Part shown: one piece after another, positions 32,364-55,832 of the stretch | How positions within the stretch are numbered: the stretch's first letter is position 1 | How the letters are laid out: each line of letters opens with the position of its first letter | From: an uncultured Actinomycetota bacterium | GTDB taxonomy: Bacteria; Actinomycetota; Thermoleophilia; Gaiellales; Gaiellaceae | DNA length: 64,000 nucleotides | Assembly: GCA_963723405.1 (NCBI GenBank) | Contig: CAVRQF010000007.1 | Span: 138,801 to 202,800, forward strand | Direction of reading: 5' to 3' | The notes under the pieces: model-generated | The model's database searches: none | What the model was told of the DNA's origin: nothing | The model's input: the letters and a program-made list of their open reading frames with translations, nothing else | Program-made: the position numbers and the translations under genes

Positions 32364-33491
32364 CTACCCGACGCAGTCCTTCAGACCCTGCGCCTCGGGT
32401 AGCGACTCGAGCTTCTTCAACGTGTTGTTCTCGATCTGGCGGATCCGCTCGCGCGTGACCCCGAACGCCTTGCCTACCTCCTCGAGCGTGCAGGGCTGCG
32501 AGCCGTCGAGCCCGTAGCGGAGCTCGATGACGCGACGCTCGCGAATCGGGAGCGACGCGAGCGCGCTCTCGATGTCCGAGCGGCGGAGGGTCAGCGAGGC
32601 TGACTCGAACGGCGACTCGGCCTCCTGGTCCTCGACGAAGTCGCCGAGCTCGGAGTCCTCCTCCTCGCCGATCGGCTTCTCGAGCGAGATCGGATGCTGC
32701 GCCATGCGCAGGATCTCGCGGACGTCATCGGTCGACATCTCGAGCTCCTCGGCGATCTCCTCCGGGAAGGGCTCTCGTCCGAGCCTCTGAACGAGCTGCC
32801 GCTCGATGTGAACGACCTTGTTGAGCTTCTCGACCATGTGGACGGGGATCCGGATCGTCCGGGCCTTGTCCGCGATCGCCCGCGTGACGGCCTGGCGGAT
32901 CCACCATGTCGCGTACGTGGAGAACTTGAACCCTTTGCGGTAGTCGAACTTCTCGACCGCGCGGATGAGACCGAGCGAGCCCTCCTGGATCAGGTCGAGA
33001 AATGAGAGGCCCCGTCCGAGGTACCCCTTCGCAATCGACACGACCAGGCGGAGATTCGCCTCGATCATCTGGGACTTTGCGAGCATGTCGCCGCGCTCGA
33101 TCCGCTTGGCCAGATAGACCTCCTGGTCGGCGGTGAGGAGCGGCACCCGCCCGATCTCGCGCAGGTAGAGCCTGAGCGAGTCCAGCGAAGGCTCGACGGT
33201 GAGGTCGAGCTTCGGTGAGTTCTTCTCCTCCGGAACGAGCGGCTGCTCGTGTGGAAGCGCCTTGTGCTGCTCGCCCTCGACGAGCTCGACGCCGTGATCG
33301 ATCAGATACGTCGTGAAGTCCTCGAGCTGTTCCTTGGTGAGCTCCACTTCCTCCACACCCGCGACGATCTCGTCGTAGGTGAGGAAGCCCTTTTCCTTCC
33401 CCGTCTCGACAAGCTTGTGGAGCTCTTCTACTTCGGGTAGGGAGATGTCGACCGTGAGCAACTGACCCCAACCTCCGGCTCGGATGACCAA
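32364..33491 (-). CDS. rpoD: RNA polymerase sigma-70 factor, RpoD/SigA-like (regions 1.2-4 present)
   Basis: Intact ORF: ...[27 protein letters not shown]...[82 protein letters not shown]...[21 protein letters not shown]...[45 protein letters not shown]. The track start is TTG 33491. An alternative TTG at 33461 has GGAGG 10 nt upstream. Confidence 0.85.
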
Positions 33492-36662: not shown

Positions 36663-36736
36663 GGGGGCGTAGTTCAGCTGGTTAGAACGCCGGCCTGTCA
36701 CGCCGGAGGTCGCGGGTTCGAGTCCCGTCGCTCCCG
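36663..36736 (+). tRNA. tRNA-Asp (anticodon GTC)
   Basis: Manual cloverleaf of 74 nt, CCA not encoded. Acceptor GGGGGCG/CGCTCCC (one G-U). D arm GTTC-AGCTGGTTA-GAAC. Anticodon arm CCGGC-CTGTCAC-GCCGG. Variable AGGTC. T arm GCGGG-TTCGAGT-CCCGT. Discriminator G. Confidence 0.93.
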
Positions 36737-36738
36737 CT
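36711..36738 (+). repeat. attL-like direct repeat (3' end of tRNA-Asp)
   Basis: CGCGGGTTCGAGTCCCGTCGCTCCCGCT is identical to 46604-46631. Confidence 0.8.
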
Positions 36739-36742
36739 GCTG

Positions 36743-36774
36743 AAAGCCCCGTGAATACGGGGCTTTCGCGTTTT
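36743..36774 (+). terminator. Intrinsic terminator after tRNA-Asp
   Basis: AAAGCCCCG-TGAATA-CGGGGCTTT (9-bp stem) is followed by CGCGTTTT. Confidence 0.55.
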
Positions 36775-37010
36775 GTAGGGGTTTGCATCCGTTCCAGCTT
36801 GCTCGGAATGGAAACGAGTTTGGAAACGAAGCCTCTCGCTCGTCCCCCACGCCGCCCGACGCATCCTGATTCCCGACGAGCAATCGCGACTCCGCTTGGT
36901 TGTGTGTCGGTCCATGCCGCGACGATCGTGTCAGCCCGCGCAACACAAACCGCGTCATCGCGAAGGGGCTACTGCCGTCCTGGCGAATACCAGACGCGGT
37001 GCCCACCGCG

Positions 37011-37468
37011 GCCGCGATCATTGATGCCCTTGTGCAGTTTCGGAACGTGGTCCTCAAGGAGTACCGGGGACTGGGAAGACGTTTGCTGCTCGGGCCGCGA
37101 TCACGATGCACCCAAGCACGTCGTACGAGGACTTCGTCGAAGGGCTTCGATATGACGAGACCCTGAGTAGCTTCGTCCGCCGCGACGGGTTCATTTTGCG
37201 GATCGTCGGCGAGGCTGAGGCTGCTCCGGATGAAGACTTTCTGGTGCTCTTGGACGAGCTCGATCGCGCGAATGTCCCAAAGGTCCTGGGCGACCTCCTG
37301 CTCACCTTGCAAACATTCCCTCGGCGGGCCCCCGAAGCGGCCGTCCAGTCTGAGATCTCCACTCCCCTGCAACGGGCGGCGCCGAAATCCGACACTCGAG
37401 CTGCCCGGCGCGACGCCCCTACAACTCGGTCGGCGTCAAGTACTACTCCCGATCGGGTGAGGGCGTGA
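37011..37468 (+). pseudogene. McrB-family AAA+ GTPase (restriction-system subunit) remnant
   Basis: Across a frameshift it reads IIDALVQFRNVVL / QGVPGTGKTFAARAAITMHPSTSYEDFVEGLRYDETLSSFVRRDGFILRIVGEAEAAPDEDFLVLLDELDRANVPKVLGDLLLTLQ. This matches the E. coli McrB blocks QGPPGCGKTF, FHQSYSYEDFIQGYRP, DGIF and IIDEINRANLSKVFGE. Downstream, the frame degenerates and the C-terminal half is absent. Confidence 0.65.
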
Positions 37469-37568
37469 GGAAACAAGCTGTCGGAAGAGACCCAGACTGC
37501 GACACGCCTCCAAGCGACTGTAGTGATGACGCCTCTTCGACCGTCCCTCGATGGCTTCGGGTGATGAG

Positions 37569-37690
37569 TTAGGGCGACATGCTCTCAGCCATTTTCAGAT
37601 GCATCTTCAAGATCGGCAACGCCGCGGTCGCCGCGCTCTTGAGCGCGGTCGCTGCCCGTGCTGGTCCGACTCGCCGTCGAGGGTCGGTTT
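37569..37690 (-). pseudogene. DUF4142 C-terminal fragment (inverted copy of the 3' end of gene 44670..45170)
   Basis: Encodes ...ALKSAATAALPILKMHLKMAESMSP*, versus ...ALKSAATAALPILKMHLNMAESMST* at 45170. About 105 nt align at roughly 85-90% identity in inverted orientation (by eye). Confidence 0.65.
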
Positions 37691-37695
37691 CCGGC

Positions 37696-37969
37696 TTAGT
37701 AGAGGCGATGGTTGCTCGCACGTCTCGCCCATTCGACGAGCCACGCGACGGTCTCTTCGGCTTCCGCCGGTTGGCGACACCAGGCACGGAAACTCGCGCC
37801 CGAGCAGTGGAACTCGTGGGCGAGTGGCCGAGGAGATGATCTCCATGCGCATCGAGTAACGCTCAGTCAGGCTTCCAAGGTGGCGCAACGACGCCGCGTT
37901 AGAAGGCACGACGAACTCAACGTCAACAACCTGCCTTCCTGTCATAGCTGACGTATTGGGCTGGAACAT
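37696..37969 (-). CDS. Small conserved ORF, paralog of 49965..50273, frameshifted (function unknown)
   Basis: Reads MFQPNTSAMTGRQVVDVEFVVPSNAASLRHLGSLTERYSMRMEIISS, then after a frameshift AEETVAWLVEWARRASNHRLY* (TAA 37696-37698). The paralog reads RVVEVEFGGASAAALLRHLGSLTERHAMRMEILS...AELTVAALVEWVRRASS. Confidence 0.45.
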
Positions 37970-37979: not shown

Positions 37980-38004
37980 ATTCCCGGCAATTCGTGAAAT
38001 TAAC
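37980..38004 (-). promoter_or_regulatory. Candidate sigmaB/sigmaF-type promoter (GTTA-N15-GGGAAT), possibly leaderless
   Basis: The minus strand reads GTTAatttcacgaattgccGGGAAT. GTG/ATG of ORF 37696..37969 begins 7-10 nt after the -10 element. Confidence 0.3.
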
Positions 38005-38113
38005 AATGCTTTCAGAACAGGACTCAAGTCGCGCTGAAAATCGGCGCGAAGCCGGGTCGACAGTCGCCCCCCTTGCGCAAAACGCACAGTTCGCCGAAGA
38101 GTCTGATGCCTGA

Positions 38114-38148
38114 GTGGCCGCGCACGTTCCAATCGCGCACGCGGCCAC
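38114..38148 (-). terminator. Hairpin downstream of the PRC-barrel gene
   Basis: GTGGCCGCG...CGCGGCCAC forms a 9-bp stem about 30 nt after the stop at 38180. There is no U-tract. Confidence 0.35.
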
Positions 38149-38179
38149 GTCTTCAGCCGGAAGGTGGTCCCAGCGTGCC

Positions 38180-38539
38180 TTACCAGTCCTGCCAGCCGGC
38201 GCCGCCGCGGTCGTAGTACGCCCCAAGCTGGCCTCGATAGACGTCGTCGCGATAGTTGTCAGCATCGAACTCCGGCGAGTTCTTGATCTGCTCCTTGGTG
38301 CGGTTGACGTACACCTTCTCATCTTCCCCGTCAACGCGGCTGATCACGCCCGCCGGAAGCATTACCTTCTTACCGAAAATCCACGGCCCGGTGTCGACGA
38401 CGATATACGCGGAGCCCACGTCGTTGCTGGTCTCGTCGATTTTCCCAATCGACCCATCCAGTGCTTCGACCCCATAGCCCGTAAGGTCGAGAGAATCGAG
38501 CGATTGCTCGCGATACGTCCAGATCTCTATCGCACTCAT
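38180..38539 (-). CDS. PRC-barrel domain-containing protein
   Basis: Intact ORF with GGGAGGA 5 nt upstream: MSAIEIWTYREQSLDSLDLTGYGVEALDGSIGKIDETSNDVGSAYIVVDTGPWIFGKKVMLPAGVISRVDGEDEKVYVNRTKEQIKNSPEFD.... Confidence 0.8.
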   Translation of the reverse strand: MSAIEIWTYREQSLDSLDLTGYGVEALDGSIGKIDETSNDVGSAYIVVDTGPWIFGKKVMLPAGVISRVDGEDEKVYVNRTKEQIKNSPEFDADNYRDDVYRGQLGAYYDRGGAGWQDW

Positions 38540-38580
38540 AGCGTCCTCCCTGATGCATTTGCTCGTTGATCGCGACGGTG

Positions 38581-38606
38581 GTACCCGCGTTCAGTCCGCA
38601 CAAACC
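38581..38606 (-). promoter_or_regulatory. Candidate sigmaB/sigmaF-type promoter (GGTTT-N15-GGGTAC) for the PRC-barrel gene
   Basis: The minus strand reads GGTTTgtgcggactgaacgcGGGTAC. The -10 element ends about 40 nt upstream of ATG 38539. Confidence 0.45.
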
Positions 38607-38714
38607 AACCGACGGCTTGAACTGATTGCGGTGACCGGTCACGCTCTTAGGCGCCTGCGGCAACTGCACGCAGCTCCGCGATCACCGGCTCCATTAGAGG
38701 CCCACAACGTAAGG

Positions 38715-38810
38715 CTAGGTGCGGCGCACGAAGTAAACAATCAACAACACGAGCAGGATGATCACCAAGATCCCGATCAGCCCATAACCAGTGCCGGCCA
38801 TCGCAAGCAA
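38715..38810 (-). CDS. 31-aa hydrophobic small membrane peptide
   Basis: A perfect AGGAGG (38818-38823) lies 7 nt upstream of TTG 38810. The peptide is (M)LAMAGTGYGLIGILVIILLVLLIVYFVRRT*, a single TM helix with a basic C-terminus. It is too short for the ORF track, apart from a longer spurious 95-aa extension. Confidence 0.45.
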   Translation of the reverse strand: MLAMAGTGYGLIGILVIILLVLLIVYFVRRT

Positions 38811-38846
38811 CGTATTACCTCCTAGTTGACGTAACCCTGAGTAGTG

Positions 38847-38871
38847 ATGCCCGTCACCGCGATGCGCAAAC
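38847..38871 (-). promoter_or_regulatory. Candidate sigmaB/sigmaF-type promoter (GTTT-N15-GGGCAT) for the small peptide gene
   Basis: The minus strand reads GTTTgcgcatcgcggtgacGGGCAT. The -10 element ends about 24 nt upstream of the SD. Confidence 0.4.
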
Positions 38872-39234
38872 AGACACATCGGAATAACTGCTACTTCTTG
38901 GCACGGGTTCGCGGGCCGCCTGGTGTGACTAGAGCTCGATACGCGCGAACCCGCCTCCATTGGACGCCGCGACCTGCCCAGACTTTCGCCTTCGTCACAC
39001 ACTCCAGCTGTTCCCGACTTGCGGCCGGACGGTGTTTACAGTGCTTGCACATGTCGCCGTGCTCACTCAGCTCACTCGTTACAACCTGTCAGACAACGAG
39101 GAGCGCGAGCGGCTCATACGACAGGTAGGGCGTAGTCGCGCCCGGCCTCGACATTTGAACGTAATCCGCTTACTGCGCGGCATGACCTTCGCTCGCGGAT
39201 GCCAGGTTCGCGCTCGACGTCGGCCTCGAATCCG

Positions 39235-39480
39235 TTACAAACTCAAGGGCCTTGTCGGGCTGACCGTCGCTCCGCCGTTCCCGGGCCTGATCCTATCTCT
39301 CGGTGTCGGGCGGCAGTTCCGACGGCGGCTCGCCGGGTCAGGGACCGGATACGGGGTGCCCGGGTCAGGGGAGGGGTAAGGCGTTCCCGGATCGGGTGGT
39401 CTCGGTGGGGTCGGCTCCGGGTCAGCCGGGCCTGGGAGTGGGGGCGTAATCAAACACAGCGAGCGTGTCACGACGACCAT
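39235..39480 (-). CDS. Hypothetical Pro-rich protein with PDPGTPYP repeats (doubtful)
   Basis: Part of ORF 39235..39555: MVVVTRSLCLITPPLPGPADPEPTPPRPPDPGTPYPSPDPGTPYPVPDP.... The underlying DNA is an imperfect ~26-nt tandem repeat (39331-39420). I see no RBS and no homology. Confidence 0.2.
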   Translation of the reverse strand: MVVVTRSLCLITPPLPGPADPEPTPPRPPDPGTPYPSPDPGTPYPVPDPASRRRNCRPTPRDRIRPGNGGATVSPTRPLSL

Positions 39481-40201
39481 GTCCAGGGAATGCCCAAACG
39501 GAAGTCTCCAGAAACACCCCGTAGGATCTCCGGCTCCGCCATGTGGAGGTGGCAATCCTCCGTTTGCGAACTCGAGGGCATGTGCTCGTTACACGCCGTC
39601 CGTCGTATGCCGCGACGCGGTCATGCCGATCCTCACCGGCTCTGGAAGTCGGCGTGCAGCTCGGGCACACAGTAAGCGGCGCGCGACGTCACCTCAGGCG
39701 CTTCGCCCCGGCGCTGCAGCCTGCGGCCCATCTGCAGCCCGGTCGGGCTGTAGATGCGGGATGGTCGGGTCGGAGGACAGGTTGAGGTGCGCAGCGACCT
39801 TCGGCGCGCAGTCAGCGAACAACCGCTGGATGCCGTGCCCAACTAGGCGGCGGCGCTGACCCGGCAGAGATTCCGACAAGTCCGATCCAGGTATTTCTCG
39901 CCGCGTTCTTCCCTCGCCGTGCGTGACTCGGCAGGCACCTCGCACAAGTTCTGTGGGGGTCTCGAGCTGGCTGGAGTGCCGCAGCTGGCCCAGGTTGAGT
40001 GGATCGAGCCGGAGCCGCCTGAGGGTGTGAGGCGGTCGAGGTCGAGGTACGTCGCGATGACGAGATCGCGAAGATGGTCTCTCTTTGACGTTGAGCGTTG
40101 GCGCCATCATCACGTCGACGGCGGGCTTTCCCGCGCGGCCGTCAGGCATCAGAATCCTGACCTGCCTCGGCGTCGCGAGCGCACCGAGCAGGGGGCTTCG
40201 G

Positions 40202-40570
40202 TTAGAGGGGGGCTCTCATTCGGATTGTCGTGCCGTGCGGTTCGCTGGTTATTTCGACGTGGGGCATGAGGACGCTGATCATCATGAGGCCGCGTCCACG
40301 CTCGTCGTTGTCGAAGCGTGCGTGCTTCCAGGTGCCGGTATCGGTGACCGCGACCGTGAGGCTGTCTTGCTCGATCGCTGCGCGGACTTCGACCGTCACG
40401 CAAGGCTCGGCGTGTTCGATCGCGTTCGCGGCGGCTTCATGGGTGGCGAGAATGACTGAGCTTCTCAGCTCGTCGGAAAGCTCGGTCTGGTCCAGCCATG
40501 TGCCGAGGTCACGGCGAAGCTCACCGAGCCGGCTGAGTTCGCAGGGGAGGGATGCCACGAAGACCTCCAC
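40202..40570 (-). CDS. RsbW/SpoIIAB-like anti-sigma-factor-type Ser kinase (HATPase_c_2), cassette A
   Basis: From GTG 40570: VEVFVASLPCELSRLGELRRDLGTWLDQTELSDELRSSVILATHEAAANAIEHAEPCVTVEVRAAIEQDSLTVAVTDTGTWKHARFDNDERGRGLMMISVLMPHVEITSEPHGTTIRMRAPL. The N-box is EAAANAIEHA and the G2-like box is GRGL. It is 94/122 identical to 49593..49961 by my count. Confidence 0.8.
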   Translation of the reverse strand: MEVFVASLPCELSRLGELRRDLGTWLDQTELSDELRSSVILATHEAAANAIEHAEPCVTVEVRAAIEQDSLTVAVTDTGTWKHARFDNDERGRGLMMISVLMPHVEITSEPHGTTIRMRAPL

Positions 40571-40609
40571 TTGCGGGTTAATTCCGCGAGGCGTCGAAAC
40601 CAAACACGG

Positions 40610-40945
40610 TCACGCCAACGCCTGCTCACGGTCTGGGACGCAGTCGAGATGCTCTAGGAGACCGCTGATTTCAAGAGCCGTGCGAACGATCATGGCGGTG
40701 CCGAGCTGTAGACGCAGCCGCGACCCTCGGCTCCGGGCGAGCCGGTCAGCCAGCGCAAGGTTGTGAAGGAACGAGGAGTCGATGAACTGCGCGTCCGTTA
40801 CGTCGATGACGACGAGATCGTTCGTCTCGACCAGCGAGGTGAAGAGCTCTCGAACGTCAGTCTTGGTCGCGACGTCGTGCTCACCATGCACCTCGACAAC
40901 GGCGGCTCCGACCCTGGGCCGGAGCACATGGAGATCGGGGATCAT
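40610..40945 (-). CDS. STAS domain anti-sigma-factor antagonist (RsbV/SpoIIAA-like), cassette A
   Basis: AAGGAG precedes ATG 40945: MIPDLHVLRPRVGAAVVEVHGEHDVATKTDVRELFTSLVETNDLVVIDVTDAQFIDSSFLHNLALADRLARSRGSRLRLQLGTAMIVRTALEISGLLEHL. The phosphorylatable-Ser context is FIDSS. Confidence 0.8.
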   Translation of the reverse strand: MIPDLHVLRPRVGAAVVEVHGEHDVATKTDVRELFTSLVETNDLVVIDVTDAQFIDSSFLHNLALADRLARSRGSRLRLQLGTAMIVRTALEISGLLEHLDCVPDREQALA

Positions 40946-41061
40946 CTGAGTTCTCCTTCGAACATGAGGACATCGGGACAGTTCGTCTTCAAGCCGGAAG
41001 TTCTCTCGGTTCCTGTTGATCCGTTTCGGTTGGAGGGCGAGCCTCGTGGTTGCTCGCCAGC

Positions 41062-41412
41062 TCACGTTGGGCCTCGACCGCCGAGGGTCGAGTCGTCTCC
41101 GAGTTCGGTCACGCCGAAGAGCCCGAGGAGCGCCCCGACGTCCTGCCCCTCTTGGGCGGGGTGCCGCATCGCGATCGAGGGGTTCACCCGGTAGCGGTTG
41201 CGACGGCCGACTCGAACACGCTCCAGATATCCGGACTCGACCAGGTCGGTGACGATCCGATGCGCTGCTCGCTCCGTGATCCCGACCTTCAACGCGATCT
41301 CGCGCAGGCGGACGTTGGGGTCTCGGGAGATGCAGAGGAGTACCTGCGTGTGGTTCGACAAGAAGTGCCACGACTTGTTCTCGCCATCTGACATACCGGA
41401 CTTTTTTAGCAT
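41062..41412 (-). CDS. Winged-helix (MarR/ArsR-like HTH) DNA-binding protein, cassette A
   Basis: From Met16 of ORF 41062..41457: MLKKSGMSDGENKSWHFLSNHTQVLLCISRDPNVRLREIALKVGITERAAHRIVTDLVESGYLERVRVGRRNRYRVNPSIAMRHPAQEGQDVGALLGL. Confidence 0.75.
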   Translation of the reverse strand: MLKKSGMSDGENKSWHFLSNHTQVLLCISRDPNVRLREIALKVGITERAAHRIVTDLVESGYLERVRVGRRNRYRVNPSIAMRHPAQEGQDVGALLGLFGVTELGDDSTLGGRGPT

Positions 41413-41445
41413 AACTTTCTTAGCATGTCTAGTCTGTCCGCAGAA
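41392..41445 (-). promoter_or_regulatory. Conserved upstream/5' region shared by both cassettes (candidate promoter-operator with ATGCTAA direct repeat)
   Basis: Minus strand here: TTCTGCGGACAGACTAGACATGCTAAGAAAGTTATGCTAAAAAAGTCCGGTATG. At 48792-48845: TTCTGTGGACAACTTAGACAGGCTAAAGAAGTTATGCTAAAAATGTCCGGTATG. Confidence 0.35.
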
Positions 41446-41478
41446 GCATCTCGGCAATCACGCACCAAGCTCCAAGGC

Positions 41479-41510
41479 GCGGGGCGTGGCGCCTGGTCGC
41501 CACGCCCCGC
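41479..41510. other. Perfect 13-bp GC hairpin upstream of cassette A
   Basis: GCGGGGCGTGGCG-CCTGGT-CGCCACGCCCCGC. There is no U-tract on either strand. Confidence 0.3.
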
Positions 41511-41775
41511 CACACCCGAGGACGACACGAGCAGGCGATCGCGATCTACCGCTATCCGGCCGCAGCCGAGCCAGGGACACGACCCGGCGACGATGCGCTG
41601 CATCGGCTCGAGCAGATCTTCTAACGTCAAAGCGCCGGCAGACCCAGGCCTGAAGACACTCTTCACCGAGCGCATCCCGACCCATGCCGACCACCTGACC
41701 CGAACCGCTCACTCTGACCTGTTCCTCGGCCCGGCACAAGGCGCTCTTTCGGCCCTGTCCTTCGGGTTCGAGCGT

Positions 41776-42096
41776 TTAGGGCTTCCGCAAGTACCTCCCG
41801 CGTACCCTGAACCAGTCCGTTGCCCCGAGCCACGCGACGGCTGCAGTCCAAGCGTCCTCCGAATAGCCGTTCGCGTTCAGCCGCGCGCTGAACACGGACC
41901 TCAAAGCCATCGGCATGTCCGGGTACGCGGTCTTCAGGCGCGCTTCCATCAGAAGCATTCGATCCAGAACGTCTTGAGGGCCACCCGCCTCGACGTGCGT
42001 ACGCATCTCGACCTCTTCCAGCGCGAGCCGTAACCAGAGCGCAGGACCGTCCCCGCGGGGCTCCTCCTCCTCCTCCTTCGCGTTGCGGCGCCGCAT
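41776..42096 (-). CDS. Hypothetical protein (island cargo, unknown function)
   Basis: ORF reads ...MRTHVEAGGPQDVLDRMLLMEARLKTAYPDMPMALRSVFSARLNANGYSEDAWTAAVAWLGATDWFRVRGRYLRKP. The composition is protein-like, but I recognise no family. Confidence 0.3.
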   Translation of the reverse strand: MRRRNAKEEEEEPRGDGPALWLRLALEEVEMRTHVEAGGPQDVLDRMLLMEARLKTAYPDMPMALRSVFSARLNANGYSEDAWTAAVAWLGATDWFRVRGRYLRKP

Positions 42097-42536
42097 CAGT
42101 GCCTCGCGGCATACCCACGTTCCCGCACGCCGAACCCATTGCTCGGATCGTTGAACCTAACGGCATACACTCTGGCTGCCCTGCCTCTGTCCGCCTCCAA
42201 GCGGGTGCGTCCATGGCATTAGCTGTAGGACCTGAACACGGTGGCTGCGAGACGAGATTGGGCCACGGCTTCACTATCGCCATTTGTCGTCGCGCAGTAA
42301 GAGCAGCGCTCCACCCCGGAGCTCGTAGCCTTCCCCTCCTTACGCGCACGGCGGAAAGCCTCCCGGCGCCGCTCAACTTTCCCGGCCTCCCGCTTCGTGT
42401 ACCCGTTTGGGCTCGTCTGTTTGCACCGACCTCGCGGCACGGACGAGCGCCGCACGTCAACCGCTGCGCGCCCTCGAGCACGACGCCGCACTCCGACGAG
42501 GCCTTCGCCTCGACCGGGTTCCAGCGTGAAAGGACA

Positions 42537-42680
42537 TTACGTCTCGTCGTCGACCTTCCAATTCGCCGGACTGCACGCCTCGCAGAACCGGCGGGGACGG
42601 CCACGCCCAGGACGCCGCTCGAAACTTACGCCGCACGACTCGCACGCCCGGGGGGCGGGTCCAACGGGCGACGAGATTCA
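42537..42680 (-). pseudogene. Zinc-ribbon (CxxC...FCxxC) protein fragment typical of actinobacterial mobile elements
   Basis: The minus frame reads PVGPAPRACESCGVSFERRPGRGRPRRFCEACSPANWKVDDET* (TAA 42537-42539) with no usable start codon. A second CG..TCG..PC fragment lies just downstream in another frame. Confidence 0.3.
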
Positions 42681-43232
42681 CGCGCCATTCCCGTTGCGAG
42701 TGGAAATGTTACGCCCCGAGTTCTGGAGCCAGGTCGGAGAGATGCTGACGAGCCCGCGAGATTCGAACTCAACGTCAACGACGTGTGTCGCTGTTAAGAC
42801 CGACGTCTCAACCTCGGACATACGCTCTGTGTTTCCCGATATAAGGCGCGGCATTAACCAAACAGCCTGTACTCGAGCCTCGTATTTTGGGATGCATCGG
42901 AATCAAAGGACCGGGTCGCCATCGGTGATCGCTCAGCTCGTGATCGCAGACGAGGCCAACGTTCGATCGCTTCAGCGTCGCGAGCTGAACGCCGGCTTCG
43001 CCCACGTCCGGCTCCACGCGGACGCGCGCGTGAGCGTCGAAATCGACGACCAAGCCCGGCTCCTGCGCCTCGCACAACAGAGGTGAGGTGACCTAGGGAT
43101 GTGCTCAACTTCTCCGACCGGGGCCGGGACGGGTTCCGCTCGGAGCGCGCAGCTGCGGCTCTGAATGACCGGGCCGCAGTCGACGACGCCTCGATGCCGT
43201 GTTGCGGGCGCTACGGACGCGGCACCGTGGCG

Positions 43233-43901
43233 CTATCGGGACGGCCCCTGGCCGAGCGGGGTGTGGTCGAGTTCCCGGGTGAGTTCCGGCAGCGAGTCGT
43301 AGACTGCGACGGCGCCGGCGTCGAGGAGCTCCTGGCTCGACCAGCCGCCGGTGAGGACGCAGATCGTCTCGAGGCCCGCGCCGGCTGCGGCCTCGATGTC
43401 CCAGCGGGAGTCGCCAACCATGACGGCGTGCGCCGGCTGCTCCGCCTTCGCGAGAGCGGCGTGGACGATGTCGGGATGCGGCTTCGAGCGTTCTACATCG
43501 TCGGAGGTCGTCCAGTCGTCGATCAGGTCCCGGACGCCGAGGACCGTGAGGAAATGGTCGAGATCGTTCCGGCCCGCAGAGGATGCGAGGATCGTTGCGA
43601 TGCCGCGGCGGCGCAGCTCTCCGACAAGCCCCGCGGCGCCGTGGAGAGGCTCGCACTCGTCGCGGATCGTCCCGAATTCGCTCTCCTTCTGTTCGCGAAG
43701 CCGGTCTCCGAGGCTGCGCTCGACATCGTCGTCTGTCAGGGCCTTGACGATCTGGTCGCCACCCATGCCGATGTGGCGGTGTATGCGCCAAACCGGCAGG
43801 ACGATGCCCTGCCCACGGAACGCCCGGTACCAGGCGAGCGCGTGATGGTAGTTCGTGTCGACAAGCGTGCCGTCGAGATCGAGCAGCGCGGCGGTAGGCA
43901 T
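43233..43901 (-). CDS. HAD family hydrolase (beta-phosphoglucomutase/phosphatase-like)
   Basis: From Met92 of ORF 43233..44174: MPTAALLDLDGTLVDTNYHHALAWYRAFRGQGIVLPVWRIHRHIGMGGDQ...ILASSAGRNDLDHFL...DVERSKPHPDIVHAALAKA...VMVGDSRWDIEAAAGAGLETICVLTGG. Confidence 0.8.
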   Translation of the reverse strand: MPTAALLDLDGTLVDTNYHHALAWYRAFRGQGIVLPVWRIHRHIGMGGDQIVKALTDDDVERSLGDRLREQKESEFGTIRDECEPLHGAAGLVGELRRRGIATILASSAGRNDLDHFLTVLGVRDLIDDWTTSDDVERSKPHPDIVHAALAKAEQPAHAVMVGDSRWDIEAAAGAGLETICVLTGGWSSQELLDAGAVAVYDSLPELTRELDHTPLGQGPSR

Positions 43902-43910
43902 CTTCGCCTC

Positions 43911-43937
43911 GTACCAACCGACGGGGTGTATGAAACC
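43911..43937 (-). promoter_or_regulatory. Weaker sigmaB/sigmaF-type promoter candidate (GGTTT-N16-TGGTAC) before the HAD gene
   Basis: The minus strand reads GGTTTcatacaccccgtcggtTGGTAC, 9 nt before ATG 43901. Confidence 0.25.
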
Positions 43938-44615
43938 GAGCCGCCCGATAATGCATGGAAGAAATGAAGCGGCCAGGAGGTCGCAGGGCCGCTGCTCGCG
44001 CCGCGTCAGCAGCCTCGCCCCATCCGTGATCCCGGCGCTTGCGGCGCTTTCATGAAGGGTTAGGCGTGGCCGTCGGAGGCCGCACCATCCGCTAGCTTCG
44101 CGGGAGAGCACGGTCGATCGTGTTCGGAAGCTGTAGCCGCGGCCAAGGGTGGACGCGCCGGAGGCGGCGCCCATTCGAGAAAGCGGTACTTCGAGCGAGA
44201 TCTCGTCGGCGGGCGCGTCGCGGTGCGTGACGGAGCAGAGTCGTCGAAGCTTCCTTCGCTCCGTCCTTCGCCTTCTCTGCGTTCTTGGCCTTCGCAGCCG
44301 CGCGGCTCGCGCTCGTCGTGAGCGTGCCCGACAGGTCCTCGGACTCCTTAGGCAGGAGTCGGAGTCGACGAACTCGCTCGAAACATTGCCGTCCCATTCG
44401 CGACGCTGCGTCCGAGGGGGAGCGGCACACCACTGAGTAGCGTTTATCCCCGAAACGGCTGGCAGGCCGCCCGAGGGCGCCGACCTAGAAGGCTATGAGC
44501 ACCTCACCAGCAGTCACGTAGGGTGCTGCGACGTTCAGGTCTGGGAGGTTCTCGGCGAGCCACGCGGCGGCGACCCGATTCGACTCGTGCCCGCCTGGTC
44601 CTCGCACTCGCCGAT

Positions 44616-44640
44616 GTGTATCGCAGCCCGGCGGGGGTAG
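44616..44640 (+). promoter_or_regulatory. Candidate sigmaB/sigmaF-type promoter (GTGT-N15-GGGTAG) for the DUF4142 gene
   Basis: GTGTatcgcagcccggcggGGGTAG lies about 30 nt upstream of ATG 44670, with the GAGGAGGGG SD in between. Confidence 0.3.
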
Positions 44641-44669: not shown

Positions 44670-45170
44670 ATGCATAAGCGCGCCCTACTGCTCACACTCG
44701 TTCTTGCGTCAGGGTTTGTCACGATGGCGGCAGCTGCGCCCGGACCCACGAACCAGGACCGAACGTTCGTAATGACCGCGGGCCACGCCGGCGCTGCCGA
44801 AATCGCCGCGGCGAAGCTGGCGCTGACGAAAACGAACAACTCGTCGACGGTCGCGTTTGCGCGGCGAATGATCCGCGACCACACGATGCTGGCGGCGAAG
44901 TTGACCTCGACAGCCCGGGCCGTCGGACTGATGCCCCCGACCACGCCGAGCCCGGCACAGACAGCCTCGATCGAGGCGCTCCGCAAGCTCAGCGGGACGG
45001 CGTTCCTGCAGAAGTACCGCCTGAGCCAGATCTCCGCTCACAAGGACGCGGTCGCGCTCTTCACGGCCGAGTCCGAGCGCGGGCAGACACCAGCTCTCAA
45101 GAGCGCGGCGACCGCGGCCCTGCCGATCTTGAAGATGCATCTGAACATGGCCGAGAGCATGTCGACCTGA
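44670..45170 (+). CDS. DUF4142 domain-containing secreted protein
   Basis: From the internal ATG of ORF 44523..45170: MHKRALLLTLVLASGFVTMAAAAPGPTNQDRTFVMTAGHAGAAEIAAAKLALTKTNNSSTVAFARRMIRDHTMLAAKLTSTARAVGLMPP...FLQKYRLSQISAHKDAVALFTAES.... Confidence 0.8.
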   Translation: MHKRALLLTLVLASGFVTMAAAAPGPTNQDRTFVMTAGHAGAAEIAAAKLALTKTNNSSTVAFARRMIRDHTMLAAKLTSTARAVGLMPPTTPSPAQTASIEALRKLSGTAFLQKYRLSQISAHKDAVALFTAESERGQTPALKSAATAALPILKMHLNMAESMST

Positions 45171-45174: not shown

Positions 45175-45335
45175 CCCCATCAGGCCGCGTCCACGCTCGA
45201 CGTTGTCGAAGCTTGCGTGTTTCCAGGTGCCGGTGTCCAGTTTGTCCAGGAACTCGATCTGATCTAGACACTCGGCGAGCTCGAGGCGAAGCGCGCGAGA
45301 CGAGATCGACCTCGTCCGGGGTCCTCATCGGATCG
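45175..45335 (-). pseudogene. Third, internally deleted copy of the RsbW-like kinase gene
   Basis: The minus strand reads ...LELAECLDQIEFLDKL-DTGTWKHASFDNVERGRGLMG. It matches the kinase N-terminal segment (L..WLDQ...DKL) and the DTGTWK..FDN.ERGRGLM block, but lacks the ~45 aa between them. Positions 45181-45240 align with 40280-40335 of cassette A. Confidence 0.5.
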
Positions 45336-45815: not shown

Positions 45816-46346
45816 CTAGGCGTCGCTGCCGTCGTCGGTGCCGACGACGTGGATGTCGACGTACATACCGCCCGACTCGTGGCCCGTCGTCTGGCAGAGG
45901 AGTCGATACCAACCGTGCTTCAGGAGGACCTTCGTTGTCGAATCGACCTCCGTGCTCGTGCCACACGGTGCGGCAGGGTTAGCCGCCGCGGGATCGTTAC
46001 AGATCGGCGTGAGTTCCTGAGCGGCCGACCCCACGGGCCCACACGCCGAGTCTGACCTCGGGCAGCTTCTGAGCGCGATGTTGTGCATGCCGCTCGTGTC
46101 GGCCGCCGACAGCCAGTAGGTGCCCGGGTTGATCGTCAAAACCTGGTGCACAGCCCCGTGCCCCAACGCATCGGAGTCACCGAACTTGACGTCGATGCAA
46201 CCGAAGACGCCCGCCCCGCAACTGAACGATGCATTCAGGGTCCGACCCTGCGCCGACGACTTCCCCGCCATCAGCGCGAACGCGATTGCCACCGCTGCCA
46301 CGACGAGGAGCGGGAGTGCCACACGATAGTTGGATGCTTTCTTCAC
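45816..46346 (-). CDS. Secreted cupredoxin-like (type-1 copper, plastocyanin-like ligand pattern) protein
   Basis: Intact ORF with signal peptide MKKASNYRVALPLLVVAAVAIAFALMAGKSSAQG. Candidate ligands are GMHNIAL (His) and LLCQTTGHESGGMYV (Cys-x4-His-x4-Met) near the C-terminus. Confidence 0.55.
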   Translation of the reverse strand: MKKASNYRVALPLLVVAAVAIAFALMAGKSSAQGRTLNASFSCGAGVFGCIDVKFGDSDALGHGAVHQVLTINPGTYWLSAADTSGMHNIALRSCPRSDSACGPVGSAAQELTPICNDPAAANPAAPCGTSTEVDSTTKVLLKHGWYRLLCQTTGHESGGMYVDIHVVGTDDGSDA

Positions 46347-46603
46347 TGACGTTCCCCTTTACCCAGTTGTCTTGTCCGAACGAGCAGGAATGCGTTCAGG
46401 TCCCCCCGTTGGCGCACCTATTGCGACCCGGCCGCAGAAACTCACCGTCTCACAGGATCAGGGCGAAGTCAACTTGCAAGATCGGACGGGCGGATTCGAA
46501 CCGAGCCTTCTGCTCCCAAAGCCAATCGGGGCCGTGGCACGAACTCCGCAGACCGAAATGGCTTGTCTACACAGCGCTCGGCCGCTCTCGGCACCCCAGT
46601 ACA

Positions 46604-46631
46604 CGCGGGTTCGAGTCCCGTCGCTCCCGCT
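46604..46631 (+). repeat. attR-like direct repeat (displaced tRNA-Asp 3' end)
   Basis: CGCGGGTTCGAGTCCCGTCGCTCCCGCT is identical to 36711-36738. It is followed by a hairpin (46643-46672) that could be the original tRNA terminator. Confidence 0.75.
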
Positions 46632-46860
46632 CTCGAAAACCCCGCATCCCGCCTAGCTTGCGGCCGGATGCGCGTCGTCCAACCGGCGAAGCCCGTGCCG
46701 CACACGTCGTCTCGGGTCGGTGACTCGCGTCGACGCGCAAGGATGCGAGCGTGTCCGGGACGGTCCGTCGACGCCGCGACTCGCGCCGCGGAGCTCGTCG
46801 ACGGGCGCCGGCCGAGCAGCACGAAGTGAAGCCGTGCTGGGCTCGACCTAGACTCACGCC

Positions 46861-47062: not shown

Positions 47063-48223
47063 GTGGCCAGATTGCGGGCGATCGAGGCGCCATGGCGCAC
47101 TATCGTTCGGCGAGTGGATCCCAACGGTGCTCTGACTGAGCTTGCGTTGTCGCTTGTTGAGACGGAGTCGGTGAATCCGGGGCTCGCGGCCGACGGGTCG
47201 GGAGAGGGCGAAGCGGCCGAGGTCGTTGCGGAATGGTCTCGGGCGGCGGGGCTGCAGGTCGAGCTCGATTATGTTCTGCCCGGCCGGCCGAACGTGGTGG
47301 TAACTGCGCCTGGCACGGGAAGCGGCCGGACCCTGTTGCTGAACGGGCACCTCGACACGGTGGGCGTCACCGGGATGGAGTACCCGTTCGCTGCGGATGT
47401 GCGCGACGGGCGGCTTTACGGGCGTGGCGCCTACGACATGAAGGGTGCGCTGGCCGCCGCGCTCGTCGCCGCAGCCCAGTTGCGACACGAGAAGCTCGCG
47501 GGCGACGTCGTGGTGGCGTGCGTCATCGATGAAGAGCTTGGCTCCGCCGGGACCGAGCGGCTGGTGACATCGCGAACCGCCGACGCGGCGATCGTCTGCG
47601 AGCCGACCGATGAGCGTGTCTGCATCGCGCACAAGGGATTCGTGGGCTTCGAGGTCGAGACACGTGGCCGTGCCGCTCACGGTTCGCGGCCGGATCTCGG
47701 TGTTGACGCGATCGCGGCGATGGGACCGGTGCTGATCCGGCTCCAACAGTTGGCCGACTCGCTCGAACAGGAGGCCGGGTCACCCGCTCCTCGGTGCCGG
47801 CTCGATCCACGCCTCACTGATCGAGGGCGGCCAAGAGTATTCGAGTTACCCGGAGCGATGCCTGTTGACCGGTGAGCGACGCACCGTGCCGGGGGAGTCG
47901 ACGGCCGACATCGAGGAGGAGTTGCGTGGCCTGGTCGGCCAAACCGATGCGAACGTCCGGATCACGTTTGCCCGCCACCCATTCGAGATCGACGCTGCGG
48001 CAGATTGCCGCGACAGGTCGCGCGATGTGCCGGAGATGACCGTTTCCATGGGATCGCGTTCTGGACGGACGCCGCGCTCGTAGCCGAAGCGGGTATTCCT
48101 ACCGTCCTCTATGGGCCGCGCGGGTCTGGAGCACACGCGAGCGAGGAATGGGTTGAGCTCGCAAGTCTGGAACGATGCGCCCGCGTCTACCTTGAAACCG
48201 CTCGCGCACTCTGCGCCGCATAG
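47063..48223 (+). CDS. M20 family metallopeptidase (ArgE/DapE/acetylornithine deacetylase-like), frameshifted
   Basis: ORF 47063..47875 reads ...LVETESVNPG...LLLNGHLDTVGVTGMEYPFAADVRDGRLYGRGAYDMKGALAAALVAA...VVVACVIDEELGSAGT...IVCEPTDERVCIAHKGFVGFEVETRGRAAHGSRPDLGVDAI. It continues in two other frames (SIHASLIEGGQEYSSYPERCLLTGERRTVPGES, then FWTDAALVAEAGIPTVLYGPRGSGAHASEEWVELASL). Confidence 0.75.
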
Positions 48224-48313: not shown

Positions 48314-48742
48314 ATGCGCGAGCTCGAGACAACCGAACTGAGAGCGTTTCTGCTCGCGGGCACGCGGACTGCGAAGGTCGCGGTTGTGCGTCGAGACGGG
48401 TCACCCCTGGTGACGCCGGTCTGGTTCCTCCCCGACGAGGACGGGTCGATCGTGTTCGAGACGGGTCGGAGCTCCGTGAAAGGCCGCGCGCTCTCACGCG
48501 ATCCGCGGGTGTCGATCTGCGTCGAGGATGACGAGCCCCCGTTCGGGTTCGTTCGCGTCGACGGGATCGCAGAGCTCTCCGATGACCACGACGAGCTGCT
48601 GTCGTGGACGATCAGGATCGCGGCGCGCTACATGGGCGAGGATCTTGCGGAGGAGTTCGGTCGCCGGAACGCAGCTCCGAGCGAGATGCTCGTGCGGGTG
48701 CGACCCCATCGCATCATCGCGCAGGTCGAGTTGGCCGACTGA
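48314..48742 (+). CDS. PPOX-class (pyridoxamine 5'-phosphate oxidase fold) probable F420-dependent enzyme
   Basis: Intact ORF: MRELETTELRAFLLAGTRTAKVAVVRRDGSPLVTPVWFLPDEDGSIVFETGRSSVKGRALSRDPRVSICVEDDEPPFGFVRVDGIAEL.... Confidence 0.8.
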   Translation: MRELETTELRAFLLAGTRTAKVAVVRRDGSPLVTPVWFLPDEDGSIVFETGRSSVKGRALSRDPRVSICVEDDEPPFGFVRVDGIAELSDDHDELLSWTIRIAARYMGEDLAEEFGRRNAAPSEMLVRVRPHRIIAQVELAD

Positions 48743-48824
48743 CACCTCGCCGAGAGCGCCACGTTCACCGATTCTCGGGTACTCGAGGTGGTTCTGTGGA
48801 CAACTTAGACAGGCTAAAGAAGTT

Positions 48825-49163
48825 ATGCTAAAAATGTCCGGTATGGCTGGTACTGCAATCAAGCCTTGGCGATTCCTGTCGAATCACGCCCAGGTGCTCC
48901 TCTGCATCTCGCATGACCCCAACGCCCGTCTACGCGAGATCGCGCTGGAGGTCGAGATCACGGAACGAGCAGCGCATCGCATCCTGACCGACCTGATCGA
49001 GGCGGGATACGTGGAGCGTGTTCGGGTCGGCCGTCGCAACCGTTATCTGGTGGACCCATCGGTTGCGATGCGGCACCCTGCTCAACACGGACAGGAGGTC
49101 GGAGCGTTACTCGGGCTCCTGGACGTGAGCGATCTCCAGGAACCTGGAGGAGGTCCGGAATGA
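48825..49163 (+). CDS. Winged-helix (MarR/ArsR-like HTH) DNA-binding protein, cassette B
   Basis: From the internal ATG of ORF 48528..49163: MLKMSGMAGTAIKPWRFLSNHAQVLLCISHDPNARLREIALEVEITERAAHRILTDLIEAGYVERVRVGRRNRYLVDPSVAMRHPAQHGQEVGALLGL. Confidence 0.75.
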   Translation: MLKMSGMAGTAIKPWRFLSNHAQVLLCISHDPNARLREIALEVEITERAAHRILTDLIEAGYVERVRVGRRNRYLVDPSVAMRHPAQHGQEVGALLGLLDVSDLQEPGGGPE

Positions 49164-49218
49164 CGGCAAGGCCGCCTACACGATGCCTTCATGTCCTCGT
49201 GTACGAAGGAGAACCCAG

Positions 49219-49554: not shown

Positions 49555-49592
49555 CCGGCTTCAGATCCCGCGCCCCGGGGAACTAGGGCGGA

Positions 49593-49961: not shown

Positions 49962-49964
49962 TCG

Positions 49965-51023: not shown

Positions 51024-51094
51024 CCCGAGGGTCGCGGCGGCCCGACGGCGATGAGCGGTGTTTCATCCCAGCGACCGTCGGGAAGCCCACGACA

Positions 51095-55810: not shown

Positions 55811-55832
55811 TCCACTACTCTACCCGCGTTAT

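Follow-up and report, generated by a model that had tools for sequence, protein, structure and literature searches.

SigB/SigF-type promoter motifs upstream of genes in a tRNA-flanked, low-GC segment of an uncultured Actinomycetota genome

Genes and motifs of the low-GC segment

The window (the whole 64-kb stretch of DNA that was analysed) contains a low-GC segment bounded on the left by a tRNA-Asp (GTC) gene (36663-36737, plus strand; identified by ARAGORN, Rfam tRNA model 71.5 bits) and on the right by an att-like direct repeat of the 3′ end of this tRNA (46604-46644, plus strand; 28 nt exact, 41 nt at 90%). The GC content of the core segment (36.7-46.6 kb) is 63.9%, compared to 70.9% in the left flank. 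All six SigB/SigF-type motifs that a sequence-only reading had listed in this region are present in the sequence where it had placed them, and three of these precede the genes described below.

The PRC-barrel protein gene (38180-38539, minus strand) encodes 119 aa with a weak Pfam PRC match (18.6 bits, under the cut-off). An AlphaFold model of the protein (pLDDT 77) matches the PRC barrels of the reaction-centre H subunit and RimM in Foldseek, and there are at least 7994 homologues. Its candidate promoter, GGTTT-N15-GGGTAC (38581-38606, minus strand), has its -10 box ending 42 nt ahead of the ATG and holds the only strict GTTT-N14-17-GGGTA match on either strand of the window (38582-38605). 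Upstream on the same strand, a gene for a hydrophobic (membrane) peptide of 31 aa (MLAMAGTGYGLIGILVIILLVLLIVYFVRRT; 38715-38810, minus strand) starts at a TTG codon preceded by GGAGG at 7 nt; the peptide has no family match in Pfam or NCBIfam. The motif GTTT-N15-GGGCAT (38847-38871, minus strand) lies 37 nt ahead of this start. The DUF4142 gene (44670-45170, plus strand) encodes a secreted or lipoprotein-like product of 166 aa (Pfam PF13628, 5e-37), its start codon being confirmed by an identical 166-aa database protein (P0121), and the motif GTGT-N15-GGGTAG (44616-44640, plus strand) is located 30 nt ahead of the ATG.

Frequency, placement and conservation of the motif

The training set of the weight matrix comprised 44 sites that precede PRC-barrel orthologues of other genomes; it includes L001 and L002, close relatives of the window's own site, but the window itself was excluded. 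On the two strands of the window, 128 kb together, the three best-scoring sites are those of the PRC-barrel (20.5 bits), peptide (16.4 bits) and DUF4142 (15.0 bits) genes, in that order. Twelve distinct sites in the window have at most one mismatch to GTTT-N14-17-GGGTA, half of which (6/12) are within 38.5-44.7 kb. The motif had been called recurrent, with a genome-wide matrix scan suggested as a check and shuffled sequence as a comparison, and a scan of the window (300 dinucleotide-preserving shuffles in 1-kb blocks) showed enrichment in segment 36738-46644, where there are 4 sites of at least 13 bits versus 0.59 expected, a count reached in none of the 300 shuffles; in the flanks (1-36000 and 52100-64000) the motif count equals the expectation. 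By chance, a shuffled window is expected to contain 7.3 sites of at least 11 bits and 0.6 sites of at least 15 bits, and its best site scores 14.9 bits on average. The window has six sites scoring 13 bits or more, of which five are correctly oriented to a start codon 5-120 nt further downstream; such positions account for 6.4% of all strand positions (position test, binomial P = 6e-6). The recurrence is real and non-random, and is carried by five sites, of which three were among the six listed and two were additional.

A perfect GTTT-N14-17-GGGTA was found within 200 nt upstream of the gene in 32 of 81 PRC-barrel orthologous loci (approximately 0.3 expected by chance), and a further 20 of the 81 have a motif with one mismatch. 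The loci have a background rate of 0.004 per 215 nt, corresponding to a roughly 100-fold upstream enrichment. These loci come from Thermoleophilia, Gaiellales, Acidimicrobiia, Nocardioidaceae and Kribbella, with Streptomyces represented in variant form; the spacer is mostly 15 nt (range 14-17 nt) and perfect sites are mostly 34-66 nt from the start codon, the distance for the element in general being mostly 30-66 nt. A Gibbs sampler run without a prior on the PRC-barrel upstream regions recovered GTTT-N15-GGG(T/C)A, in which G1-G3 and A5 of the -10 box are near-invariant, and in a three-way alignment of the upstream regions both boxes are identical, whereas the spacer and flanks differ. A recognisable motif is missing at about one third of the PRC-barrel loci, among them all four Chloroflexota-type loci.

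Homologues of the 31-aa peptide adjoin PRC-barrel genes in L001, L004, L052 and L035. The motif is present in L001/L004 (GGTTT-N15-GGGCAG, 16.7 bits) and L035 (15.5 bits) and absent in L052, so that it is kept at two of three independent orthologous loci, including the GGGCA variant. The DUF4142 orthologues are from close relatives (approximately 73% amino acid identity), and at loci L083-L088, L089 and L090 the alignable stretch runs from the -35 box to the ATG, upstream of which the sequences cannot be aligned; since the entire 60 nt from -35 box to ATG is conserved among these close relatives, the DUF4142 footprint has a lower specificity than that at the PRC-barrel loci. Window rank and retention in orthologues support the peptide and DUF4142 sites as promoter motifs, as had been proposed, and the PRC-barrel site is further supported by the de novo recovery.

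Other sites, sigma factor genes and partner-switching modules

The remaining listed sites did not stand up. The site ahead of the HAD hydrolase gene, GGTTT-N16-TGGTAC (43911-43937, minus strand; 9 nt from the ATG), is marginal, with a score of 11.5 bits in the range where several sites are expected per shuffled window and with a T in place of the near-invariant G1 of its -10 box; the closest HAD orthologue found (L089, 54% identical) is without the motif. The site GTTA-N15-GGGAAT (37980-38004, minus strand; 8.2 bits) was judged to be a chance match, as approximately 60 sites in the window score the same or better, and the small ORF that it precedes, claimed as 37696-37969, spans 37607-37969, because the frame of the ATG at 37969 extends to 37607. 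The "cupredoxin" site, GTTC-N13-GGGTAA (46359-46381, minus strand), ahead of a secreted-protein ORF (45816-46346), was likewise judged to be chance due to its 13-nt spacer, which is outside the 14-17 nt of the orthologues, and a score of under 8 bits. Its -10 box is followed, ahead of the GTG start, by a Shine-Dalgarno-like AGGGGA run. This ORF has no match in Pfam or NCBIfam, and the cupredoxin label is therefore only putative.

Two candidate promoters were absent from the earlier list. GTTT-N16-GGGAAG (51060-51085, plus strand; 14.8 bits, window rank 4) is within a 71-nt gap 3′ of a DUF1345 gene, and its -10 hexamer ends 9 nt ahead of the ATG of an F420-dependent LLM-class oxidoreductase gene (51095-52060, plus strand; TIGR03557, 446.9 bits versus a cut-off of 210), a distance at which the mRNA may be leaderless. 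The start at 51095 is supported by the TIGR03557 model, which begins at residue 4. GGTTC-N15-GGGTAT (42111-42136, minus strand; 13.0 bits) has its hexamer end 14 nt ahead of the ATG of a conserved hypothetical gene (41776-42096, minus strand; 106 aa) that has ten full-length homologues of 104-117 aa and no match in Pfam or NCBIfam; the site is kept in L144 (N14 spacer), reduced to the -10 box in L143 and missing in L145-L147. Both sites may belong to the same promoter set.

The sequence-only reading had placed the sigma factor outside this DNA. The only sigma factor genes in the window are RpoD-type (32364-33491) and ECF (9069-9680), with no SigB/F-type (group 3) gene in the 64 kb, and a Thermoleophilaceae relative (L035) has a SigB/SigF/SigG-family gene (TIGR02980, 261.6 bits versus a cut-off of 234) at a distance of 1 kb from a PRC-barrel gene that has the motif, in agreement with that proposal. 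Pfam matches define two STAS/kinase modules in the window. Module 1 (40195-41457, minus strand) consists of a winged-helix regulator (41062-41457), a STAS protein (about 40610-40975) and an RsbW-like HATPase_c_2 kinase (40202-40570/40603); upstream of it, its strand has no motif scoring 8 bits or more. Module 2 (48784-49968, plus strand), with a winged-helix regulator, a STAS protein (49183-49554) and an RsbW-like kinase (49593-49961), is an inverted copy of module 1 with approximately 81% identical DNA (inverted repeats I1-I3). The modules score far under the NCBIfam cut-offs for named anti-sigma factors (RsbA family, 53.7 versus 210). The description of the region as a "self-contained" regulon fails, as neither module has a motif of its own in the window and module 2 is outside the tRNA-flanked segment. 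In 162 kb around STAS/RsbW pairs there are 18 matches of at least 14.5 bits versus about 2 expected (a rough extrapolation from the window shuffles), some of them directly upstream of a STAS gene. Strong motif copies in related loci precede genes for catalase, DUF892 (three loci), DUF1360, glyoxalase-fold proteins (two loci), a GT4 glycosyltransferase, CorA, Rho_N and topoisomerase IB, which is a general-stress-like set.

Interpretation and relation to known regulons

The results computed here, on the enrichment of the motif, its position ahead of start codons and its retention in orthologues, indicate that at least three genes of the low-GC segment (PRC-barrel, 31-aa peptide and DUF4142) probably each use their own SigB/SigF-class promoter; the sigma factor identity, transcription start sites and stress induction we infer. 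That every motif is a chance match in GC-rich DNA is scarcely credible: three of the six listed sites do score about as expected by chance, but the shuffle and position tests contradict this reading, and at the PRC-barrel site it is refuted by the enrichment upstream of the 81 orthologues and the de novo recovery. It is unlikely that the PRC-barrel promoter alone is real and that all other sites, including those of the peptide and DUF4142 genes, come close to the consensus by chance, favoured by the segment's lower GC content. As the shuffled windows show, chance does yield sites of 15-16 bits, the DUF4142 conservation could reflect close relatedness alone, and one peptide locus (L052) is without the motif; however, the peptide and DUF4142 sites are in the right orientation 30-37 nt from verified start codons, their GGGCA and GTGT variants also occur in promoters of PRC-barrel orthologues, independent orthologues retain both sites, and no shuffle matched the segment's count of high-scoring sites.

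Another reading, which we consider quite improbable, is that the two-box element is real and is read either by a dimeric transcription factor with two half-sites or by an alternative sigma factor of the ECF or WhiG/FliA type. In its favour, the SigB/SigF-family sigma factor of this genome is a predicted one, a gene for an ECF sigma factor is present in the window, and L083 has, near DUF4142, a sigma gene that proved to be WhiG (355.9 bits versus a cut-off of 343). The WhiG/FliA consensus is TAAA-N15-GCCGATAA. The boxes found here fit neither this nor the EcfG-type GGAAC-N17-20-GTT, whereas their informative positions (GTTT; G1-G3 and A5 of the -10 box; spacing of 14-17 nt centred on 15) are those of experimentally defined SigF/SigB promoters, and the lineage has a TIGR02980 sigma gene. 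The boxes are not repeats of one another, direct or inverted, as the half-sites of a dimeric regulator would tend to be, and their spacing is fixed while the distance to the start codon varies.

The assignment to the SigB/SigF class is borne out by the agreement of the de novo motif with published consensuses and by its retention upstream of orthologues of the three genes. The SigF consensus of M. smegmatis is GTTT-N14-19-GGGTA (PMC4694148), and the motif of M. smegmatis and M. tuberculosis is also given as GGWWT-N16-17-GGGTAY, with a regulon that contains, besides genes of oxidative stress and stationary phase, the components of partner switching (PMC4694148, PMC7693655). The boxes are the same here and their placement tens of nt upstream of start codons is similar, but the spacer is mostly 15 nt compared to the wider N14-19 of the mycobacterial tables, the sigma gene is unlinked to its targets in the window, the PRC-barrel, peptide and DUF4142 genes were not found among reported mycobacterial targets, and the host is an uncultured Actinomycetota whose nearest relatives are uncultured Actinomycetota and Thermoleophilia/Gaiellaceae metagenome assemblies. 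S. coelicolor SigB and its eight homologues (SigF, G, H, I, K, L, M and N) share the box features, with a -10 box of GGGxA(T/C) in which G1-G3 and A5 are near-invariant, a -35 box of GTTT or looser GNNT, and real promoters using variants such as GGGCAT and GTGxxx (PMC8346170); the Streptomyces PRC-barrel orthologues analysed have GTGT-N15-GGGCAG. Nine cross-recognising paralogues are, however, a feature of Streptomyces, and a developmental (sporulation) context is not evident in this window.

The B. subtilis SigB promoter, GTTTAA-N12-14-GGG(A/T)A(A/T) (PMC8346170), has the same two-box architecture with equivalent spacing (GTTT-N14-16-GGG). Control is exercised there, and presumably here, by an RsbV/RsbW-type pair of STAS protein and kinase, but the Bacillus sigma gene is in one operon with rsbV and rsbW, whereas the pairs here are joined to a winged-helix regulator with no adjoining sigma gene. 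B. subtilis SigB also controls the catalase gene katE. Catalase is a stress-sigma target in the SigF (PMC4694148) and EcfG (PMC6599016) regulons. In Sphingomonas melonis, EcfG reads GGAAC-N17-20-GTT, and its targets include PRC-barrel, topoisomerase IB, catalase, glycosyltransferase and PNPOx-type 'general stress protein 26' genes (PMC6599016), families that also stand behind GTTT-N15-GGGTA in the loci analysed here. As EcfG is of the ECF family with an unrelated motif, the likeness is in the regulated genes and not in the mechanism. PRC-barrel and DUF4142 proteins had been called typical members of SigB/SigF regulons, for which no supporting paper was found in the literature searched; the one PRC-barrel regulon match examined is to the alphaproteobacterial EcfG regulon, with its different sigma factor and motif.

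In the proposed promoters, a -35 GTTT (or GTGT) is separated by 15 nt of free sequence from a -10 GGG(T/C)A, the end of which is 30-42 nt from the start codon. Both boxes would be recognised by RNA polymerase with a sigma factor of the SigB/SigF/SigG family whose gene is outside the window; this sigma factor is presumably restrained by STAS/RsbW-type partner switching and freed under stress or in stationary phase, and the three genes would then be co-induced with genes of the catalase, DUF892 and DUF1360 types at other sites of the genome. The promoter appears to move with its gene, the same gene-plus-promoter units being seen in differing neighbourhoods of other Actinomycetota. This is a known promoter class with an ordinary mechanism, here in a new, little-studied lineage.

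A conserved promoter-type motif and its downstream genes

Scanned over both strands, the window contains the strict motif GTTT-N14-17-GGGTA (-35 box, spacer and -10 box) once, at 38582-38605(-), ahead of a gene encoding a PRC-barrel protein (38180-38539, minus strand). Orthologous loci of this gene were fetched from other genomes (82 loci, 81 with enough upstream sequence to be scanned), and a perfect motif was found ≤200 nt upstream of the PRC-barrel gene in 32 of the 81, with 20 more loci carrying a one-mismatch motif (52/81 with at most one mismatch). As the remainder of the same loci contains 0.004 perfect sites per 215 nt, ~0.3 loci would be expected by chance. The -10 box of the majority of perfect sites ends 34-66 nt ahead of the start codon, and a three-way alignment with the nearest relatives showed identical boxes with diverged spacer and flanks. 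With 79 non-redundant upstream regions as input and no motif specified beforehand, the best solution of a Gibbs sampler was GTTT-N15-GGG(T/C)A; in the Streptomyces orthologues the variant GTGT-N15-GGGCAG occurs. Gene neighbourhoods vary widely among the PRC-barrel orthologues, indicating that the promoter travels with the gene.

At E ≤ 1e-5 the PRC-barrel protein (119 aa) has at least 7994 homologues, and its very large family is highly conserved, with 70-87% identity within the top 120. The Pfam match is weak and below threshold, and no solved relative was found by a family profile search. The assignment is confirmed by the predicted structure, as the AlphaFold model (pLDDT 77) matches the PRC barrels of the reaction-centre H-subunit and RimM. 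The model places the C-terminal third of the protein (RTKEQIKNSPEFD...), which is helical, outside the barrel.

Allowing one mismatch, the window contains 12 distinct sites, six of them within 38.5-44.7 kb. A two-block weight matrix was built from 44 orthologue sites and scanned over the window, giving sites of at least 13 bits at 38582(-) (20.5 bits, PRC-barrel gene), 38848(-) (16.4 bits, a 31-aa peptide gene), 44616(+) (15.0 bits, a DUF4142 gene), 51060(+) (14.8 bits, an LLM-class oxidoreductase gene), 42112(-) (13.0 bits, a 106-aa ORF) and 30994(+) (14.5 bits, inside a gene and with no gene downstream). Comparison with shuffled sequence, named as a possible refutation in the sequence-only reading, showed enrichment in one part of the window: the low-GC segment 36738-46644 has four sites ≥13 bits relative to 0.59 expected, a count not reached in any of 300 dinucleotide-preserving shuffles, while the motif count in its flanks equals expectation in the same test. 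Five of the six sites ≥13 bits precede a start codon by 5-120 nt in the correct orientation, positions that make up 6.4% of strand positions (P = 6e-6). A sigma-70 consensus scan of 37.5-45.3 kb yielded zero promoter-like sites, below expectation, and a terminator scan of the same interval yielded one terminator-like site, also below expectation. Searching 36-52.5 kb against Rfam gave a tRNA and no other RNA family.

The 31-aa hydrophobic peptide gene (38715-38810, minus strand) has a TTG start with GGAGG 7 nt upstream, and its homologues adjoin PRC-barrel genes in loci L001/L004, L035 and L052. The motif lies 51-66 nt upstream of the orthologues in L001/L004 (16.7 bits, with the GGGCA variant in L001 as in the window) and L035 (15.5 bits), and there is none upstream of the homologue in L052; the motif is thus kept in two of three independent loci. 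For the DUF4142 gene (44670-45170, plus strand), the start at ATG 44670 is confirmed by an identical database protein. Its orthologues (L083-L088, L089 and L090) can be aligned from the -35 box to the ATG and are unalignable further upstream, and the motif is kept in 3/3 independent loci. This footprint is weaker than that of the PRC-barrel gene due to the orthologues being close relatives.

Two sites that the sequence-only reading had not listed precede further genes. The 106-aa ORF (41776-42096, minus strand) is, judging from ten full-length homologues, a genuine gene; its motif is kept in one orthologous locus (L144), partial in a second (L143) and missing in L145-L147, and is regarded as a candidate promoter. 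The F420-dependent LLM-class oxidoreductase gene (51095-52060, plus strand; TIGR03557, G6PD family) has a candidate site whose -10 hexamer ends 9 nt before ATG 51095, a start supported by the TIGR03557 NCBIfam model beginning at residue 4 of the protein. The distance between hexamer and ATG is compatible with a transcript lacking a leader.

The six sites listed in that reading all have correct coordinates, and they differ in quality. Those of the PRC-barrel, peptide and DUF4142 genes are good predicted promoters. The site of the HAD hydrolase gene (43233-43901, minus strand), at 43912(-) with 11.5 bits, is marginal; a 54%-identical orthologue in L089 is located behind catalase genes without a motif of its own. 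The remaining two were dropped as chance matches: the site at 37981(-) upstream of a small ORF (37607-37969, minus strand) on its score of 8.2 bits, and the site at 46359-46381(-) upstream of a secreted ORF called a cupredoxin gene in that reading (45816-46346, minus strand; no family match) on a 13-nt spacer outside the range of 14-17 nt and a score below 8 bits. The small ORF is paralogous to a second one at 49965-50273(+) (66% identity in the first 41 aa), and neither has a known family. The copy at 49965, directly behind a kinase gene, is matched by homologues in L083 (74% identity) and L002, and the copy at 37969 diverges past approximately residue 46 and may be degenerate.

Promoter class and the search for a sigma factor

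The -35/-10 boxes of the three supported sites are GGTTT/GGGTAC (PRC-barrel), GTTT/GGGCAT (peptide) and GTGT/GGGTAG (DUF4142), all of which agree with a GTTT box tolerating GNNT and a GGGTA box with near-invariant G1-G3 and A5. All three sites, like the majority of orthologue sites, have a 15-nt spacer, within the 14-17 nt range, and the spacer columns carry no information in the orthologue sites. In the de novo matrix the -10 base frequencies are G 0.94, G 0.87, G 0.82, T 0.59 or C 0.23, and A 0.96. Several sigma factor classes were weighed against this pattern. The window motif is unlike that of EcfG, and its boxes and spacing do not fit the WhiG/FliA motif. They match those of experimentally defined promoters of the group 3 general-stress sigma factors SigF and SigB: M. 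smegmatis SigF recognizes GTTT-N14-19-GGGTA or, alternatively, GGWWT-N16-17-GGGTAY (PMC4694148, PMC7693655), promoters of the nine S. coelicolor SigB homologues and of B. subtilis SigB have matching boxes and spacing, and the near-invariant G1-G3 and A5 agree with the SigB-type -10 box (PMC8346170). Sequence, statistics and conservation support the proposal of SigB/SigF-type promoters at these three sites.

No SigB/SigF/SigG-family sigma gene is present in the 64-kb window, where the only sigma genes are RpoD-type (32364-33491, minus strand) and ECF-type (9069-9680). A gene of this family was found in the Thermoleophilaceae locus L035, 1 kb from a motif-bearing PRC-barrel gene (TIGR02980 score 261.6, cut-off 234.35). 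The sigma gene located 3 kb from DUF4142 in L083 was considered as the missing factor and rejected, as it is actually WhiG. In the Gaiellaceae loci L056 and L064, ~1.1 kb separates the PRC-barrel gene from an 84%-identical orthologue of the RpoD-type principal sigma gene, so that a loose linkage of the two genes is seen in more than one lineage.

The tRNA-flanked segment and the STAS/kinase modules

The window has a GC content of 70-72% with a lower-GC stretch from approximately 36 to 50 kb, and its genes have their closest relatives in soil-metagenome assemblies labelled uncultured Actinomycetota, Thermoleophilia or Gaiellaceae. An intact tRNA-Asp gene (36663-36737) marks the left end of the segment, and a direct repeat of the tRNA-Asp 3′ end is located at 46604-46644 (28 nt exact, 41 nt at 90%); the repeat begins at the T-arm and there is no second tRNA. 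The 9.9-kb segment in between is 63.9% GC compared with 70.9% in the left flank, and GC at third codon positions is ~0.70-0.78 compared with 0.85-0.93, so that both a tRNA with a repeat and a deviant composition, two marks of a tRNA-integrated island, are present. No recombinase domain was found in the ORFs or by six-frame Pfam scanning of 36738-37570 (forward frames) and 38830-40210 (all frames), which yielded a weak AAA_5 fragment alone; in the gaps at 42.1-43.2, 45.2-45.8 and 46.3-47.1 kb the integrase search covered ORFs. The segment also contains a C-terminal DUF4142 remnant (37566-37646, minus strand), a 91%-identical inverted duplicate of that gene's 3′ end, and a 60-nt kinase gene fragment (45178-45237) with 92-95% identity to the two complete kinase genes. 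These remnants point to an earlier rearrangement inside the segment and suggest its decay, and the segment looks like a decayed tRNA-integrated island.

To the right of the segment, an M20/M28 peptidase ORF (47063-47875, plus strand) spans only a portion of the Pfam model and its end is overlapped by an ORF in another frame (47865-48083); on these two grounds the region 47063-48083 may be a frameshifted pseudogene. It is followed by an F420-dependent PPOX-class oxidoreductase gene (48314-48742, plus strand; TIGR03618) and, further on, by a DUF1345 gene (50292-51023, plus strand). With the LLM-class oxidoreductase at 51095-52060, two F420-dependent enzymes are encoded just right of the segment, thus the organism probably uses coenzyme F420.

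A module of a winged-helix regulator, a STAS protein and a HATPase_c_2 kinase is encoded at 40195-41457(-), with an inverted copy (~81% DNA identity) at 48784-49968(+). Both contain an RsbV/RsbW-type pair, in which a STAS antagonist with a phosphorylatable serine is adjacent to a HATPase_c_2 serine kinase: the STAS proteins match PF01740 and PF13466 and have the serine context FIDSS (...LFIDSSFLH...), and the kinases match PF13581 at 1e-23 to 1e-24 and show the usual N- and G-box motifs on reading of the sequence (HEAAANAIEH, DTGTW, GRGL). None of the named anti-sigma factor families in NCBIfam fits the kinase, with all scores far under the cut-offs (RsbA family, 53.7 vs 210; SpoIIAB, 27.4 vs 135; RsbW, 24 vs 145). 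The STAS/kinase pair is kept in the majority of 52 metagenome loci, and no SigBFG-like gene was found in their flanks. The winged-helix gene was rejected as a conserved partner since it is missing from 52/52 of these loci, and the idea that the kinase controls the regulator was dropped for this reason. In the locus L090, a winged-helix/STAS/kinase triad adjoins DUF4142 and IS110/DDE transposases.

Matrix matches of at least 14.5 bits around the STAS/kinase pairs number 18 in 162 kb compared with ~2 by rough extrapolation from the window shuffles, some of them immediately ahead of the STAS gene (L105, L137, L119) or pointing away from it. Association makes a link of the modules to the motif regulon plausible, in the manner of rsbW3 in M. 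smegmatis. The weight-matrix scan detected no motif upstream of either window module, and the earlier suggestion of a self-contained regulon was not demonstrated.

Predicted regulon content and meaning

Strong copies of the motif elsewhere in the fetched loci (24 at ≥16 bits) precede genes for DUF892 proteins (three loci), glyoxalase-fold proteins (two loci), a DUF1360 protein, a large catalase, a GT4 glycosyltransferase, a Rho_N-like small protein, CorA and topoisomerase IB. In the flanks of PRC-barrel orthologues in L020, L034, L055, L057, L002, L016 and L079, it is strong GTTT-N15/16-GGGTA sites that stand before the DUF892, catalase, DUF1360, glyoxalase-fold, glycosyltransferase, CorA and topoisomerase IB genes. 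The targets of EcfG in Sphingomonas include PRC-barrel, topoisomerase IB, catalase and glycosyltransferase families (PMC6599016). Although EcfG is an unrelated sigma factor, these families overlap with the motif-bearing genes of the fetched loci, and the regulon content appears convergent with that of EcfG. PRC-barrel and DUF4142 proteins had been described in the sequence-only reading as typical SigB/SigF targets; no paper tying either to a SigB or SigF regulon was found, leaving that description undemonstrated.

It is possible, but in our view rather unlikely, that the segment is a decayed mobile element in which stress genes, each with a SigB/SigF-type promoter of its own, and an accompanying partner-switching module arrive together, the genes plugging directly into the general-stress sigma network of the host. 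If so, the PRC-barrel protein and the 31-aa peptide would be core, uncharacterised members of this regulon across Actinomycetota, and the content of the actinomycetotal general-stress regulon would converge with that of the alphaproteobacterial EcfG regulon.

The mechanism is already known and the lineage is new. No experimentally defined regulon was found in the literature for uncultured soil Actinomycetota, including Thermoleophilia, Gaiellales and Acidimicrobiia, and the comparative evidence extends the textbook SigB/SigF class to them. The conserved predicted targets that it provides are concrete: the small PRC-barrel protein, which is very widespread, the 31-aa membrane peptide and the DUF4142 protein, with catalase, DUF892 and DUF1360 genes in addition from neighbouring loci. 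With the weight matrix, general-stress regulons could be predicted straight from metagenome assemblies, and the chief value of the analysis is the comparative definition of regulon members in uncultured Actinomycetota.
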